Virus record (IMG/VR): IMGVR_UViG_3300028364_000026
Location: 1-64,000 of that record
Origin: a virus
Strand: one strand, 5' to 3'
Length of the DNA stretch: 64,000 nucleotides
Shown here: piece after piece, positions 26,626 through 31,359 of the stretch
Numbering within the stretch: the first letter of the stretch is position 1
How the letters are laid out: each line of letters opens with the position of its first letter
The notes under the pieces: generated by a model
The model's input: the letters and a program-made list of their open reading frames with translations, nothing else
What the model was told of the DNA's origin: nothing
Databases searched by the model: none
Translations under genes and position numbers: made by a program

Positions 26626-27501
26626 TTACTTGGCTACCAACTGAACCCTTTCACTTGGGTTATCTATATATTCTATCGCATCAACATTTTGTTTAACTGC
26701 CACTAACTGAACCGCTTCACTTGGATTCGTTATATGTGTTATCGCATAACCATTTTGTTTAACTGCCACTAACTGAACATCTTCTGGTAATTCACTTGGA
26801 TTATCTATATGTTGTATCGCATGCCCATTTTGTGTCACTGCCACTAACTGAAGTTGTTCACTTGGATTCTGTATATATACTATCGCATGCCCATCTTGTT
26901 TAACTGCCTCCATCTTAACTTGTTCACTTGGGTTATCTATATATGCTATCGCAAGACCATTTTTTGTAACTGCTGCTAACTGAACCGCTTCACTTGGTGT
27001 TATATCATTTCCTATAATATGTCTTATTGCACCACCATTTTGTGTAACTGCCGCTAACTGAAGTTGTTCACTTGGATTCTGTATGAATTCTATCGCATAA
27101 CCATCTTGCTTAACTGCTGCTAACTGAACCGCTTCACTTGGGTTATCTATATATTGTATAACAAAACCATTTTCTGTAACTGCTGCTAACTGAACCGCTT
27201 CACTTGGATTCTTTACGTATTCTATCGCACCACCATTTTCTGTAACTGCTGCTAACTGAACCGCTTCACTTGGGTTATCTATATATCGTATCAAATCACC
27301 ATTTTCTGTAACTGCTGCTAACTGAACATCTTCTGGTAATTCACCATAATAATATTTAATGTACTTTACATCTTGTTTAACACTAAGTTCCATTTTTCTT
27401 AAATAAGAGGTTTTATTATTATCATTTAACTGATTAAATTGCTCTCTAGGAATTCCATTTCCAGTATTGATATACTGTTTAATTAAATCTTTATTGTTCA
27501 T
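26626..27501 (-). CDS. DUF4116-like repeat protein, paralogue P1 (10 repeats)
   Basis: constant MNNKDLIKQY.. leader plus PSExVQLAAVxxNGxAIxYIxN repeats. Confidence 0.85.
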   Translation of the reverse strand: MNNKDLIKQYINTGNGIPREQFNQLNDNNKTSYLRKMELSVKQDVKYIKYYYGELPEDVQLAAVTENGDLIRYIDNPSEAVQLAAVTENGGAIEYVKNPSEAVQLAAVTENGFVIQYIDNPSEAVQLAAVKQDGYAIEFIQNPSEQLQLAAVTQNGGAIRHIIGNDITPSEAVQLAAVTKNGLAIAYIDNPSEQVKMEAVKQDGHAIVYIQNPSEQLQLVAVTQNGHAIQHIDNPSELPEDVQLVAVKQNGYAITHITNPSEAVQLVAVKQNVDAIEYIDNPSERVQLVAK

Positions 27502-27531
27502 AATTAATTTTTATTTTGATTTGCTAAACTC

Positions 27532-28479
27532 TTAAGTAATTAAATAATTAAATTGTTCATCAGTTAATCTGTGACCCCTACCAATATATTTAGATTTAAA
27601 ATCAAATGGTAATTTCATAAACCATTTTAAATCTCCATTACTTCGACCCAATAATTGTTCCTCTTCTTTTTCACTATCTGTTTTAGGTCTATTAACCATC
27701 TTATCAACTGGAACACCATTAGATTTTAAATAACTAACATAACCATCAACATCTTTACGGTACTCAGAAATATTTCCAGTGTTATTGTCAGCATCAGTTA
27801 ATTCAATCCCGTAACGTGTACTATCAAATACAACTATGTGTAATGGGTCATTTAAATCAACACCACCGTTAGAAGTTGTTTTAAATTTATTGGTATCAAC
27901 AATGAAATAAAATGATGAATCTTTAGTATCTCTATAACTATTATACATAGTATTACCAAATTGACCAATACAAAAACCATAGTTTCTTCCAGTCAAACCA
28001 CCTTTAGTGTATTGAATACACTTTTGAATAGAGTCACCATCATAAATGTCAATTCCGTTACCAGACCATAATTTTTTAGTCTCACTCTCAAACTTTTCAG
28101 TATCCCCAACTTCAGCCTTTTTAGCATACTTACCTTCCTCACCATGAATAAACTCAGCTAACGAAATGTAATCGTTAAACTTATTATCACCTATAACTAT
28201 TTGATTATTAACAATCTGCATAGGTTTAACTCTATTCTTTAACAACAATTTATCAAAGATATTAAAATCACTTAATATTGTGTCAATATCTGTAAAACCA
28301 TTAGCATAAACAAAAGCCATAATTGGCACACTTTTTTGATTTTTTGATTCATCACCACCAGCAAATTTTGCGATAATTTCATCAGCATTCTCAACATTTG
28401 CTTTTTTTAACACACCTAACCCTTGAAGCTCTGAAGATTTAGACTCCAGTAAAAAACTATATATTTCTAAAAGTCTCAT
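27532..28479 (-). CDS. hypothetical protein, putative head-targeted, PcfJ-like central region
   Basis: N-terminal MRLLEIYSFLLE; CIQY..YGFCIG..MYNSYR..SSFYFIVD pattern; ATATTTAT motifs at 28514-28521 and 28571-28578. Confidence 0.6.
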   Translation of the reverse strand: MRLLEIYSFLLESKSSELQGLGVLKKANVENADEIIAKFAGGDESKNQKSVPIMAFVYANGFTDIDTILSDFNIFDKLLLKNRVKPMQIVNNQIVIGDNKFNDYISLAEFIHGEEGKYAKKAEVGDTEKFESETKKLWSGNGIDIYDGDSIQKCIQYTKGGLTGRNYGFCIGQFGNTMYNSYRDTKDSSFYFIVDTNKFKTTSNGGVDLNDPLHIVVFDSTRYGIELTDADNNTGNISEYRKDVDGYVSYLKSNGVPVDKMVNRPKTDSEKEEEQLLGRSNGDLKWFMKLPFDFKSKYIGRGHRLTDEQFNYLIT

Positions 28480-28622
28480 TTTTTTTTATTTAATATTTAT
28501 TATTTGTTATTATATAAATATACCCTATCACCATTAAAGTTAACTATATAATTGCGAATTTTGGGTTTTTATAAATATAGAGTAACTTGGATGTTAATTC
28601 TGTTATTTTCCTAATAATTAGG

Positions 28623-29288
28623 TTATCTATTCCCCATGACTAACAACTTAACTTGCTCACTTGGATTCTCTATATATGTTATTGCGTGACTATTTTGCGT
28701 AACCGCTGCTATCTGAACCGTTTCACTTGGATTCTTTATATAGTATATTAAATTACCATTTTCTTTAACTGCTAACATCTGAACTCGTTCACTTGGATTC
28801 TTTATATATTTTAACGCAAAAGCATCTTCTTTAACTGCTGCTAACTGAACCGATTCACTTGGATTCTTTATGTATTGTATCACACGACCATCATGTTTAA
28901 CTGCTGCTATCTGAACCGCTTCACTTGGATTCTTTATGTATTGTATCACATAACCATTTTTTGTAACTGCCACTAACTGAACCACCTCACTTGGATTCTT
29001 TAGATATTGTATCGCTTCACCATCTTGTTTAACTGCCTCCATCTGAACTTGTTCACTTGGGTTCGTTATATGTTTTATCGCATAACCATCTTGTTTAACT
29101 GCCGCTAACTGAACATCTTCTGGTAATTCACCATAATAATATTTAATGTACCTTACATCTTGTTTAATACTAAGTTCCATTTTTCTTAAATAAGAGGTTT
29201 TATTATTATCATTTAACTGATTAAATTGCTCTCTAGGAATTCCATTTCCAGTATTTATATACTGCTTTATTAAATCTTTATTGTTCAT
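28623..29288 (-). CDS. DUF4116-like repeat protein, paralogue P2 (7 repeats)
   Basis: same constant leader and repeat unit as P1. Confidence 0.85.
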   Translation of the reverse strand: MNNKDLIKQYINTGNGIPREQFNQLNDNNKTSYLRKMELSIKQDVRYIKYYYGELPEDVQLAAVKQDGYAIKHITNPSEQVQMEAVKQDGEAIQYLKNPSEVVQLVAVTKNGYVIQYIKNPSEAVQIAAVKHDGRVIQYIKNPSESVQLAAVKEDAFALKYIKNPSERVQMLAVKENGNLIYYIKNPSETVQIAAVTQNSHAITYIENPSEQVKLLVMGNR

Positions 29289-30179: not shown

Positions 30180-30181
30180 AA

Positions 30182-30664
30182 TTAATTTTTATTTTGATTT
30201 GCTGCTAACCTAACCACCTCACTTGGTGTAATACCTTTTTTTACTATATGTTCTATCGCATCACCAGTTTGTGTAACTGCTGCTAACTGTACTTGTTCAC
30301 TTGGATTCTCTATATAGTATATCGCATGCCCATCTTGTTTAACTGCCTCCATCTTAACTTGTTCACTTGGGTTATCTATATATGCTATCGCACCACCATC
30401 TTGTGTAACTGCCGCTAACTGAACCGCTTCACTTGGATTCTTTATATAGGATATCGCATTACCATTTTGTGTAACTGCTGCTAACTGAACATCTTCTGGT
30501 AATTCACCATAATAATATTTAATGTACCTTACATCTTGTTTAACACTAAGTTCCATTTTTCTTAAATAAGAGGTTTTATTATTATCATTTAACTGATTAA
30601 ATTGCTCTCCAGGAATTCCATTTCCAGTATTTATATACTGTTTAATTAAATCTTTATTGTTCAT
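30182..30664 (-). CDS. DUF4116-like repeat protein, paralogue P4 (4 repeats)
   Basis: same constant leader and repeat unit as P1. Confidence 0.85.
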   Translation of the reverse strand: MNNKDLIKQYINTGNGIPGEQFNQLNDNNKTSYLRKMELSVKQDVRYIKYYYGELPEDVQLAAVTQNGNAISYIKNPSEAVQLAAVTQDGGAIAYIDNPSEQVKMEAVKQDGHAIYYIENPSEQVQLAAVTQTGDAIEHIVKKGITPSEVVRLAANQNKN

Positions 30665-30666
30665 AA

Positions 30667-31359
30667 TTAATTTTTATTTTGATTTGCTGCTAACCTAACC
30701 ACCTCACTTGGTGTTATATCATTTCCTATAATATGTCTTATTGCACCACCATTTTGTGTAACTGCTGCTAACTGAACTTGTTCACTTGGCGTAATACCTT
30801 TTTCTATTATATGTACTATCGCATAACCATTTTGTTTAACTGCTACTAACTGAAGCGATTCACTTGGATTCTGTATGAATTCTATCGCATAACCATCTTG
30901 TGTGACTGCCACTAACTGAAGCGATTTACTTGGGTTATCTATATATTGTATAACAAAACCATTTTCTGTAACTGCTGCTAACTGAACCGCTTCACTTGGA
31001 TTCTGTATGAATTCTATCGCACCACCATTTTCTGTAACTGCTGCTAACTGAACCGCTTCACTTGGGTTATCTATATATCGTATCGCACCACCATTTTGTT
31101 TAACTGCCACTAACTGAACTTGTTCACTTGGATTCTCTATATATTGTATCGCCCAACCATCTTGTGTAACTGCCGCTAACTGAACATCTTCTGGTAATTC
31201 ACCATAATAATATTTAATGTACCTTGTATCTTGTTTAATACTAAGTTCCATTTTTCTTAAATAAGAGGTTTTATTATTATCATTTAACCGATTAAATTGC
31301 TCTATGGGAATTCCATTTCCAGTATTTATGTATTGTTTAATTAAATCTTTATTGTTCAT
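30667..31359 (-). CDS. DUF4116-like repeat protein, paralogue P5 (7 repeats)
   Basis: same constant leader and repeat unit as P1; first gene of the P5-P2 operon, ATATTTAT at 31383-31390. Confidence 0.85.
   Translation of the reverse strand: MNNKDLIKQYINTGNGIPIEQFNRLNDNNKTSYLRKMELSIKQDTRYIKYYYGELPEDVQLAAVTQDGWAIQYIENPSEQVQLVAVKQNGGAIRYIDNPSEAVQLAAVTENGGAIEFIQNPSEAVQLAAVTENGFVIQYIDNPSKSLQLVAVTQDGYAIEFIQNPSESLQLVAVKQNGYAIVHIIEKGITPSEQVQLAAVTQNGGAIRHIIGNDITPSEVVRLAANQNKN

Follow-up and report, generated by a model that had tools for sequence, protein, structure and literature searches.

Five paralogous genes of an uncultured lake phage each join a nearly constant N-terminus to an array of variable repeats, which raises the question of what such a family is for. 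They lie on the (-) strand of the 64,000-nucleotide stretch of phage DNA that was analyzed (the window). A sequence-only reading had taken them for an antibody-like repertoire belonging to an undescribed system, a diversifying set of adaptors directed, for example, against host defence proteins or nucleic acids. That reading is partly supported: the solenoid and the selection signal stand, the docking domain fits the comparative data, and the antibody-like, nucleic-acid and undescribed elements do not. On balance, the five genes probably form a recombining tandem family of DUF4116 alpha-solenoids whose products serve as detached arms with which a modular phage protein binds its targets.

Genes, repeats and predicted fold

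Paralogue A (30667–31359; 230 aa), recognized from its open reading frame, the repeat cut, its PF13475 score of 55.6 bits and an AlphaFold2 model, opens the run A-B-C-D. It consists of a head (31195–31359), seven DUF4116 repeats and a 14-aa partial repeat. Two nucleotides separate its stop codon from the start of B (30182–30664; 160 aa; head at 30500–30664, four repeats and a partial repeat). C follows (29292–30179; 295 aa; head at 30015–30179, ten repeats and a partial repeat), and D (28623–29288; 221 aa; head at 29124–29288, seven repeats and a divergent partial repeat) is the final gene of the run. The fifth paralogue is E (26626–27501; 291 aa; head at 27337–27501, ten repeats). Embedded within the array, between D and E, is an open reading frame of 315 aa on the same strand (27532–28479), here called the body gene. 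Its stop codon lies 30 nt from the start of E, in the same frame and with two in-frame TAA codons between. A promoter-like motif, ATATTTATA, is found on the (-) strand 22 nt upstream of A (31382–31390), and two (-) strand copies lie between D and the body gene (28513–28521 and 28570–28578; region 28513–28578). The motif occurs 19 times in the window compared to 6.2 expected, a count reached by 0 of 100 shuffles, and it also stands upstream of the head operon (50547) and of a tail-fibre-like gene (20254). Motifs of this type are putative promoters.

Repeats were delimited by cutting at every P-S/E-E/K/D anchor. The cut leaves a 55-aa head followed by 7, 4, 10, 7 and 10 full repeats in A, B, C, D and E (n = 38), and a partial repeat of 10–14 aa closes each of the five genes. 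The leader-plus-repeat family first noticed in the sequence is real, and the 10, 7, 10, 4 and 7 repeats then counted are these 38 in the genome order E, D, C, B, A. Repeat length is 22 aa in 26 cases, 21 aa in 6 and 26 aa in 6. The 21-aa repeats are the first of each gene plus E9, and they open with PED instead of PSE. The 26-aa variant (..KGIT/..NDIT) comprises A6, A7, B4, C9, C10 and E5. It had been said usually to cap the array, and it does end three of the five arrays, but it is internal in E and missing from D. Tandem Repeats Finder reports 66-nt arrays in 5/5 genes, and all five paralogues exceed the PF13475 gathering cut-off of 24.9 bits (the others are B 39.4, D 60.8, E 82.3 and C 94.3).

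The heads of the five paralogues are 93.9–98.2% identical at the DNA level. Entropy across the 38 repeats is 3.10 bits at position 15 and 3.07 bits at position 18 (10 residue types at each), 2.89 bits at position 21 (10 types) and 2.36 bits at position 4 (7 types). V5, A9, V10, A16, I17 and I20 are fixed, and P1, A9 and V10 are invariant in 38/38. The residue sets given earlier for the variable sites X1, X2 and X3 are exactly as found; the set for X4 was incomplete, with I and V added by the 26-aa variants. In 43 repeats from other phages, too, variability peaks at positions 15 and 18 (about 3 bits), so the pattern is a property of the family.

AlphaFold2 predicts A as an all-helical solenoid (pLDDT 94.6, pTM 0.85) in which head and repeats fold together as a single rigid body. 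The modelled repeat has helix A at positions 3–12 (10 residues) and helix B at positions 14–19 (6 residues). Helical periodicity places stripes at 4-8-11-12 on helix A and 15-18-19 on helix B, with 21 in the loop. On the question of whether the variable residues line one face, this periodicity puts positions 4, 15, 18 and 21 at exposed sites. Together, the repeat cut, the entropy and the model support a constant N-terminal module joined to a solenoid with a fixed scaffold and a variable surface. An ankyrin identity, defined by a Pfam Ank HMM match and a 33-aa repeat with a beta-hairpin, was considered and rejected: no Ank family matched the five genes in Pfam at E ≤ 0.01, and the repeat is 22 aa and all-helical. 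The top structure-only matches are ankyrin repeats with an rmsd of 9.1 over 223 residues and a Z of 6.7, which is below the level signifying more than a common arrangement.

The body gene and its fused relatives

Sequence comparison identifies the 315-aa body gene as the N-terminal domain of a family in which body, linker and repeats are fused. The search returned 337 virus-dominated cluster representatives at E ≤ 1e-3, and 100 of the best 150 of these are proteins of more than 450 aa that begin with the domain. In the consensus of 73 long members the body's terminal motif runs directly into the leader motif, and the tails scanned among these members are ankyrin in 26, DUF4116 in 2 and LRR in 1. 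P0013 carries body, leader and DUF4116 in one chain. Of 36 IMG/VR loci, 15 are fused, 16 stop within 10 aa of the body end and 5 terminate beyond a single leader motif. Pfam applied to 10 of the 15 fused loci gave ANK in 5, LRR in 1, DUF4116 in 1 and unnamed tails in 3. The head of the paralogues shares homology with the stretch that comes next after the body domain in the fused members. New here is that, by this comparison, the leader of the sequence-only reading is the linker that follows a ~315-aa domain in fused relatives. A further likeness links the body's last 21 residues to head residues 5–25 (9/21 identical, E 3e-4 in a single comparison). The head is also borne by unrelated repeat types (P0007-P0010; L018, L014, L010, L009), and thus is a module of its own and not a DUF4116 cap.

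The lake phage encodes body and repeats on separate polypeptides, and the same split is found in 16/36 related loci. Among 12 split loci inspected, 10 have one to six leader genes beside the body gene, and the stop and start codons of these body-plus-arms genes often abut. L017 has its leader genes 4.4 kb from the body gene. No leader gene was detected beside the body gene in the other 2 of the 12, L008 (which ends about 430 nt past the body gene) and L016.

In the model that we favor, a fused family member is one polypeptide in which a globular body of ~315 aa is followed by a helical linker of ~55 aa and then by an exchangeable C-terminal region made of ankyrin, LRR, DUF4116 or unnamed helical repeats. 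The lake phage and its closest relatives have this gene severed exactly at the body/linker border, with one body gene and several linker-first genes as the outcome. The linker would dock each arm non-covalently on the body protein, and each arm would bind a different protein target through the exposed positions 4, 15, 18 and 21. The binding surface would consist of helix B, the loops and the start of helix A. The earlier idea of adaptors with a common docking domain fits these comparative data in that the head is the linker to ankyrin, LRR and DUF4116 tails in fused relatives. Complex prediction with the body and head(1–120) scored 0.53, and the best of three controls scored 0.00. At least 46% of contacts recur between runs, and the partner pLDDT is at least 78. 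In calibration, the mark was reached by 58/80 solved complexes and 2/110 mismatched pairs; scores ≤0.60 included only 7/80 solved complexes but both of the passing mismatches. The prediction lends weak support to docking of the arms on the body in trans.

The weakness of the docking support also speaks for a stand-alone expansion of the repeat family, in which the proteins act alone, the head is a solenoid cap and the body is a neighbor by descent from a former fusion. This explanation is unlikely but carries appreciable weight. The rigid joint fold of head and repeats (pTM 0.85) suits it, as do the two split loci with no leader gene beside the body and the phage DUF4116 multigene families for which no partner has been reported. 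Its cap is difficult to reconcile with a head that occurs on unrelated repeat types as a separate module and that constitutes the conserved segment past the body in fused proteins. Neighborhood by descent is likewise opposed by the retention of body plus arms in 10/12 split loci, often with abutting stop and start codons.

The body protein itself has a conserved Cys170 together with Arg183, Asp195, His214, Asp229 and Asn232, and an L-L-E|S-K motif at residues 10–14. No family was found for it in Pfam, PHROG, NCBIfam or PADLOC, and Foldseek comparison of its model to the PDB gave no match at E ≤ 0.001 (best VIA Z 5.2). With no recognizable fold or family, an 'effector' or 'anchor' role would therefore be a guess. 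A PcfJ-like identity (PF14284) was rejected when an HMM search of the record gave no match at E ≤ 10; the weak PcfJ leads are 1/26 body relatives at E 0.11, an Atlas cluster that is 33% PcfJ and BFVD rows at E 6e-3 to 0.4. We found no published description that links body, linker and arm.

Deployment, targets and source of variation

The phage encodes a T4-type prohead protease (Peptidase_S77 at 49804–50529, E 2.1e-22). Among 150 body relatives examined, 38 of the 43 that bear the motif have L or I two residues before the conserved N-terminal Glu. This pattern matches L/I-X-E, the form of gp21 cleavage sites (PMC9026906). It is conceivable, though quite unlikely, that the body is a T4-type head cargo, propeptide-loaded and protease-trimmed, that carries docked arms into the host to seize defence proteins. 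Loading would occur via the body's N-terminal L-x-E propeptide and would be followed by trimming by the prohead protease. The docked linker-bearing arms (DUF4116 here; ankyrin or LRR in relatives) would enter the host cell with the DNA, and each would grab its own separate host defence protein in the opening seconds of infection. If this is true, one body gene with many arm genes would widen the target range by duplicating and shuffling small arm genes alone.

The protease and the cleavage-site pattern would also suit a body and arms that are virion parts (head cargo, decoration or fibres), with the arms used for attachment or structure and not for intracellular targeting. The promoter-like motif, which stands ahead of both the A-D run and the body gene as well as of the head operon and the tail-fibre-like gene, points the same way, as does a PA5oct 'structural protein' matched weakly in BFVD (E 0.023). 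However, the N-terminal motif could merely begin a conserved helix, since the body model has a helix through residues 2–26. The five arms have no N-terminal L/I-X-E propeptide, their first L/I-X-E being L55-P56-E57 at the head/repeat junction, and alpha-solenoids are, to our knowledge, not typical receptor-binding folds. We consider a virion role for the body and arms very unlikely.

The detached-arm model proposes protein targets, and the sequence-only reading had also named nucleic acids. Sequence-specific binding in which each repeat contributes to a code, like that of PPR, PUF or TALE proteins, is suggested by a regular unit with 2–4 specificity-type positions per repeat and by top Foldseek rows that are designed PPR proteins (E 0.05–0.15). 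No Foldseek match reached E ≤ 0.001, however (best E 0.051), and the best structure-only matches are the ankyrin repeats at their subthreshold Z of 6.7. The net charges of the repeat bodies are -10.8, -5.8, +0.4, -0.8 and -19.6 in A to E; A, B and E are acidic. The paralogues thus have neither the significant fold or sequence match nor the basic surface that define those classes. With protein-binding ankyrin or LRR domains in the same place in relatives, a nucleic-acid code is barely credible.

Diversification of the arms is visible at the codon level. Pairwise pN at positions 4, 15, 18 and 21 is 0.56–0.63, whereas pS averages 0.229. The scaffold is frozen down to its codons, rare ones included: Gln at position 6 is CAG in 36/36 and Ala at position 16 is GCG in 26/29, each with a genome usage of 8%, and AGT (32/32), ATA (37/37) and CCA (38/38) are similarly frozen. 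When the 34 distinct repeats are joined in a minimum spanning tree, 153 nonsynonymous and 28 synonymous codon changes fall along it, with 77 versus 2 at the four variable codons; these counts treat 66-nt units and ignore recombination, and gene conversion that homogenizes scaffold codons would inflate the ratio. The per-site dN/dS-type check that had been proposed thus returns a diversifying-selection signal at the variable positions. Variability at exposed repeat positions could partly come from lack of constraint.

The paralogues are mosaics of one another, with exact common blocks of up to 174 nt. The longest equates D aa77–134 with C aa143–200, out of register. C and B have a 106-nt exact block in common. 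E is a mosaic built of A-, B- and D-like blocks, with exact blocks of 77 and 74 nt shared with A and 73 nt shared with B. An ectopic head/repeat junction in array E (PSEL|PEDVQL; 26770–26799, (-) strand, from the repeat cut) is, judging by its sequence, a scar left where a head-repeat boundary recombined with an internal repeat. Exact block identity also reveals a relic of a paralogue 3' end just upstream of E (27502–27525, (-) strand): the 56 nt at 27470–27525 are identical to 30633–30688, the end of A and the start of B. A 138-aa database protein joins the head of A to repeats 2–4 of B. Unequal recombination or gene conversion among the copies would generate new arms, and selection for diversity would retain them.

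Programmed hypervariation of the diversity-generating-retroelement or silent-cassette type would take 'antibody-like' literally. Such a process would focus variation on a few codons in a frozen scaffold and leave copies mosaic with one another, and codon 15, which is NNT in 34/38 repeats (codon 18 is NNA in 31/38), superficially resembles the product of AAY-templated mutagenesis. However, a search of the 88.6-kb record, an estimated 25% of the genome, gave no RVT_1 match. The scaffold adenines are invariant (CCA and AGT as above; position 6 CAG in 36/38 and AAG in the other two), which argues against retroelement mutagenesis, and the variable codons change at all bases, with differences not confined to template adenines. 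Every copy is an intact gene with a start codon, and there are no silent cassettes. A search of populations for array variants had been proposed, and in a related phage the arrays did not differ from one metagenome to a second (99.96% identity and no indels over 10,157 nt). A programmed repertoire has next to no probability.

Comparison with known systems

The closest sets are in cultured jumbo phages. A tblastn search found 26 places in Salicola phage SCTP-2 and 18 in Agrobacterium phage Atu_ph07. These sets are alike in their PF13475 match and multiple copies, which makes 'undescribed system' an overstatement for the repeats. The head and the body link, which lie outside the Pfam description, are different here. 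Matches begin at query residue 40 or later in 10/10 phage records, so the 55-aa head is absent from the cultured-phage matches. We know of no function for the DUF4116 family. The alpha-solenoid predicted here agrees with the family's contact-based model (PMC8078820).

The literature presents the T-even internal proteins as a diverse defence-countering set with only a targeting sequence in common (PMC3012670, PMC9026906). T4 IPI, IPII and IPIII resemble the present family in belonging to a T4-type phage and in that a plastic locus encodes diverse bodies with one N-terminal element in common. Their element is a ~10-residue propeptide ending in L/I-X-E, whereas the 55-aa head of the present paralogues folds as a helical module. 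In this phage only the body gene has an L/I-X-E motif near the N-terminus, and the prohead protease is present.

Constant docking domains are combined with variable repeats in poxvirus ankyrin/PRANC proteins, F-box-LRR/WD40 proteins and giant-virus ankyrin expansions. The likeness lies in a constant module with exchangeable protein-binding repeats, and ANK, LRR and DUF4116 alternate on one body in the present family. The constant domain here differs in being N-terminal, in having no recognized family or fold and in being a separate gene in this clade. We know of no SCF ligase that bacteria would offer for recruitment.

In DARPins and lamprey VLRs, each repeat varies strongly at just a few surface positions while the scaffold stays fixed. 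In contrast to these, the phage genes vary in the germline over evolutionary time and show no sign of assembly that is somatic or programmed, and their 22-aa repeat has two short helices and a weak ankyrin likeness (Z 6.7). The phage arms share with both a fixed scaffold on which new combinations arise through block copying between repeat units.

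Layout of the repeat genes and their source

Five minus-strand open reading frames within 26626–31359 make up the array: A (30667–31359), B (30182–30664), C (29292–30179), D (28623–29288), and E (26626–27501). A to D are consecutive with stop-to-start gaps of 2–3 nt. A 143-nt spacer separates D from the gene for a 315-residue protein, the body (27532–28479, minus strand), which is unrelated to the repeat genes, and E starts 30 nt past the body stop codon. All five genes encode a nearly constant 55-residue N-terminal head, followed by 7, 4, 10, 7, and 10 full DUF4116 (PF13475) repeats in A to E, respectively (38 in total), and last a partial repeat; head and repeats together are termed an arm. 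The period determined by Tandem Repeats Finder is 66 nt. The Pfam DUF4116 score exceeds the cut-off in 5/5 genes, the PHROG families matched by A to E have no known function, and DUF4116 matches in the 88.6-kb record are confined to this locus. These data bear out the constant N-terminus and repeat architecture described in the sequence-only reading. A terminator-like hairpin plus T-run lies on the plus strand at 26560–26600, between convergent dUTPase-side genes and E.

The 88.6-kb record is about one-quarter of a genome by the CheckV estimate and has a G+C content of ~30%. Among its products are several inteins, a portal and a prohead protease (Peptidase_S77, E 2.1e-22), both of the T4 type, and a capsid protein of the Gp23 type (E 1.4e-71). 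The capsid protein is at most ~42% identical to that of any cultured phage, and the nearest capsid proteins are from an uncultured 484-kb phage, a Microcystis phage, and Flavobacterium phages. A megablast search of 26000–32000 against cultured phages returned 0 matches, and the public runs containing the stretch are lake-water metagenomes. The capsid, portal, and protease genes, the distance of the capsid protein, and the lake-water runs point to an uncultured, distant T4-type phage that is probably large. The portal gene and a 1,794-residue gene with a LAGLIDADG domain contain intein matches, and intein-like inserts were seen by eye in glycosyltransferase-like and PhoH-like open reading frames (all among 52510–55959, 56009–61393, 23021–25273, and 32521–34248).

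Variation within and among the repeats

The AlphaFold2 model of A (pLDDT 94.6, pTM 0.85) folds each repeat, numbered from Pro1, into a 10-residue helix A (3–12), a 6-residue helix B (14–19), and a 5-residue loop. Per-position entropy over the 38 repeats is 3.10 bits at position 15, 3.07 at 18, 2.89 at 21, and 2.36 at 4; Pro1, Ala9, and Val10 are invariant, and Glu3, Gln6, Gly14, Ile17, and Ile20 are nearly so. On the frame of the model, the variable residues form an i/i+4/i+7 stripe on helix A (4, 8, 11, 12), an i/i+3 stripe on helix B (15, 18, 19), and a loop position (21), and the remaining helix stripes are fixed hydrophobic residues. The variable residues are predicted to be exposed because helical periodicity places them on stripes other than the hydrophobic ones. 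Eleven proteins of other phages were searched, one of which lacks any 22-residue repeat, and in the 43 repeats of the other 10 variation again peaks at these positions. Therefore, the variability map is a property of the fold family and not of this phage. Arm A had 0 matches in the PDB at E ≤ 0.001 by Foldseek, and its best VIA wide score (Z 6.7, ankyrin repeats) is under the informative level for helical repeats. PDB sequence-profile matches to designed TIM barrels and WD40 proteins were rejected as homologues and are periodicity artefacts.

The scaffold codons are the same in nearly all repeats. Gln6 is CAG in 36/36 and Ala16 is GCG in 26/29, each a codon with 8% usage in the genome; Ser2 is AGT in 32/32, and Ile17 is ATA in 37/37. 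Because the codons are frozen even where they are rare in the genome, the pattern reflects common descent or homogenization and not codon bias. At the four variable codons, bases 1 and 2 differ and the third base is often retained (NNT at codon 15 in 34/38 repeats, NNA at codon 18 in 31/38). Pairwise pN at these codons is 0.56–0.63 compared to an average pS of 0.229. Linking the 34 distinct repeats in a minimum spanning tree requires 153 nonsynonymous codon changes and 28 synonymous ones, and the four variable codons account for 77 and 2 of these, respectively. A per-site dN/dS comparison had been proposed as a check on the variable surface, and the nonsynonymous excess at the four codons is the signature expected if diversity there is favored, although the measure is crude, uses short units, ignores recombination, and would be inflated if scaffold codons were converted.

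The genes have exchanged blocks. An exact 174-nt block encodes residues 77–134 of D and residues 143–200 of C, where it is in a different repeat register. C and B have a block of 106 nt in common, E and A have blocks of 77 and 74 nt, and E and B have one of 73 nt. Within E there is an ectopic head/repeat junction (PSEL joined to PEDVQL), and the 24 nt directly 5' of the E start are a relic of the 3' end of another copy. A to E are mosaics of each other and appear to be a recent, recombining, selected family. A 138-residue database protein (P0002) from a 563-bp contig in a public collection consists of the A head and B repeats 2–4; it could be the product expected of a deletion between A repeat 1 and B repeat 2, or a short-read assembly artefact.

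Rapid switching of the arrays was not found: a related phage sampled twice shows 99.96% identity over 10,157 nt, and its three arrays are free of indels. Assembled contigs from the two best lake-water runs break inside the arrays. The body gene of a relative in a salt-lake run is 98% identical (~1,036 nt compared, with 17 differences and 4 gaps), and the short-read contig passes from this gene, via 153 other letters, into A-like repeats (side 123; sides at other contig joints are 21–34). This hints at array content that varies among strains, although short-read contigs, on which it rests, are unreliable in repeats. Programmed sources of the diversity were also considered. No silent-cassette system was found, and all copies here are intact genes. 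A diversity-generating retroelement was rejected in view of the invariant scaffold adenines and the lack of a reverse transcriptase in the 88.6-kb record (about one-quarter of the genome).

The body-linker-repeat family

No family in Pfam, PHROG, NCBIfam, or PADLOC includes the 315-residue body, with nothing at or near the NCBIfam and PADLOC cut-offs, and tblastn against cultured-phage records gave no match. Its relatives comprise 337 cluster representatives at 50% identity in a virus-dominated family. Among the best 150 of these, 100 are longer than 450 residues with the domain at the N-terminus. The domain in the long proteins ends in ..YIGRGH.LTDEQF.YL, the same motif that ends the window gene. 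Immediately after it comes a segment similar to the window heads (..L..QY..TG......Q..K......L...Y.R.R) and then by repeats. One database protein (P0013) contains body, head, and DUF4116 in a single chain. Pfam classified the tails of 73 long members as ankyrin (26), DUF4116 (2), or LRR (1), and the rest have no Pfam name.

When IMG/VR was searched with the body sequence alone, no relatives were confirmed; an alignment-based search found 44 loci that encode the body domain, and 36 of these were examined. Fifteen of the 36 are fused (Pfam on 10 of them: 5 ankyrin, 1 LRR, 1 DUF4116, 3 unnamed), 5 end after one head-type motif, and 16 end within 10 residues past the domain, as in the window. Between one and six head-bearing genes, often abutting, lie beside the body gene in 10/12 split loci inspected. 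One such locus (L018) has six tandem head-bearing genes upstream of the body gene (1290–5939), with ~33-residue repeats (..IS.DQFELLTPEQRFQYAMK..) that reiterate the head-type motif and form a repeat class without a Pfam name. The last 21 residues of the body are identical to head residues 5–25 at 9/21 positions. A search with the head alone identified 10 proteins; the head is a module of its own because 4 of them join it to quite different helical repeats. The "constant leader" of the sequence-only reading thus stands as a constant module and is reinterpreted as the conserved linker of a body-linker-repeat family, because the same segment follows the body in fused relatives and split loci carry head genes. 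In this clade, the gene has been divided between body and linker, with multiplication of the linker-repeat portion. Stop-codon read-through fusing the body to E is unlikely because two in-frame TAA codons separate them; the two genes share a frame here, and in only some of the relatives' loci.

The linker would dock each arm onto the body protein. Complex prediction with the body and head (1–120) scored 0.53 compared to 0.00 for the best of three controls, a mark reached by 58/80 solved complexes and 2/110 mismatched pairs, with 7 of the 80 solved complexes and both passing mismatches scoring 0.60 or under. Contact agreement was at least 46% and partner pLDDT at least 78 in these runs, which weakly suggest docking of the arms via the linker.

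The body model (pLDDT 87.6) has an alpha/beta core at about residues 130–264. Cys170 is invariant, and Arg183, Asp195, His214, Asp229, and Asn232 are nearly so. Foldseek against the PDB gave no match at E ≤ 0.001, the best rows being MYST/GNAT acetyltransferases with E values of 0.16 and above, and the best VIA wide match (Z 5.2) is limited to the N-terminal helices and names no fold. Among viral predicted structures, six uncharacterized phage proteins matched at E ≤ 0.001, along with weaker "PcfJ-like" rows. The PcfJ HMM did not confirm these PcfJ-like rows; a literature search for "PcfJ" returned C. elegans plasmid names only.

Proposed function and known systems

Ankyrin and LRR domains serve as scaffolds for protein binding. 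Because DUF4116 alternates with them at the same place on the body, the DUF4116 arrays by analogy most likely bind proteins. The net charge of the arm repeat bodies ranges from -19.6 to +0.4, and this wide difference speaks for different targets per arm and against a common nucleic-acid ligand, one of the two target classes suggested initially.

A motif search found 19 copies of the promoter-like ATATTTATA in the window compared to 6.2 expected, a count reached by 0/100 shuffles (sites include 31382, 28570, 28513, 50547, 46502, 41645, 20254, and 6976). The motif lies ~20–30 nt upstream of many genes, including the phage-head (prohead protease–capsid) operon and a tail-fibre-like gene, and it also precedes the A–D run and the body gene. 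It includes the T4 late box in reverse complement and is a candidate phage promoter, perhaps late. The body begins M-R-L-L-E-I-Y-S-F-L-L-E|S-K, and Glu12 is invariant in 26 relatives. The motif x-x-E-S/T-K/R/Q-x-S/T-E occurs in the first 120 residues of 43 of the best 150 body relatives, with Leu or Ile two residues before the Glu in 38/43, and the stretch ahead of it has very different lengths. Passages of PMC9026906 and PMC3012670 describe cleavage by T4 gp21 after L/I-X-E and the loading of diverse internal proteins into the T4 head by a 10-residue N-terminal targeting sequence. Given the L/I-X-E-like motif, the gp21 rule, and the common promoter-like motif, one speculative reading is that the body might be packaged in the phage head as cargo and take the arms into the cell. 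The body motif could be no more than the first part of a helix, and the arms lack it.

Other termini were recorded in the course of this comparison. The sole L/I-x-E in the arm heads is L-P-E at residues 55–57, exactly the head/repeat junction, and it also occurs at E residues 238–240; close relatives have L-P-E, L-T-E, or L-A-E at the junction. A gene closely following the capsid gene (45938–46393, minus strand) encodes the N-terminus M-K-K-F-I-K-K-L-L-R-E. At least five neighboring genes of unrelated sequence in the related phage L003 start M-K-x-(F/L)-I-K-x-L-L-R-E, ending L-x-E (tagged-gene coordinates 3927–5944, 8900–11011, and 12508–13494), which may be a second common N-terminal tag in these phages. 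Body-like N-termini are encoded at 21652–22248 (plus strand; M-R-L-Y-K-I-F-Q-D-I-I-L-E-E) and 44940–45923 (minus strand; M-R-K-I-D-K-L-S-N-I-L-N-A-N-F-L-F-E-Q-R-Y), the latter resembling the N-terminus of the body homologue in locus L008.

DUF4116 is a large known repeat family without a tested function, predicted to be an alpha-solenoid in a passage of PMC8078820. None of the listed DUF4116 papers deals with phage arrays, the terms "ankyrin" and "helical repeat" were not found in a jumbo-phage comparative paper (PMC7824862), and the listed papers on ankyrin repeats, jumbo phages, and anti-defense showed no sign of the body-linker-arm family. In the searched literature, we found no description of this family, of its ankyrin/LRR/DUF4116 tail alternation, or of the natural split form. 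Fusion in relatives and conserved gene order now tie DUF4116 to an unstudied virus-dominated domain family. Body, linker, and exchangeable arm form a concrete, testable architecture, and the natural split version eases testing. If the arms target host defense proteins, the family would offer many natural binders and anti-defense factors in large T4-type phages; if they do not, the array is still a clean example of recombination and selection building a small repeat-protein repertoire. The finding is classed with modular repeat-protein adaptors and with lineage-specific expansions in large viruses, and DUF4116 is multi-copy in cultured jumbo phages, as it is in the window.
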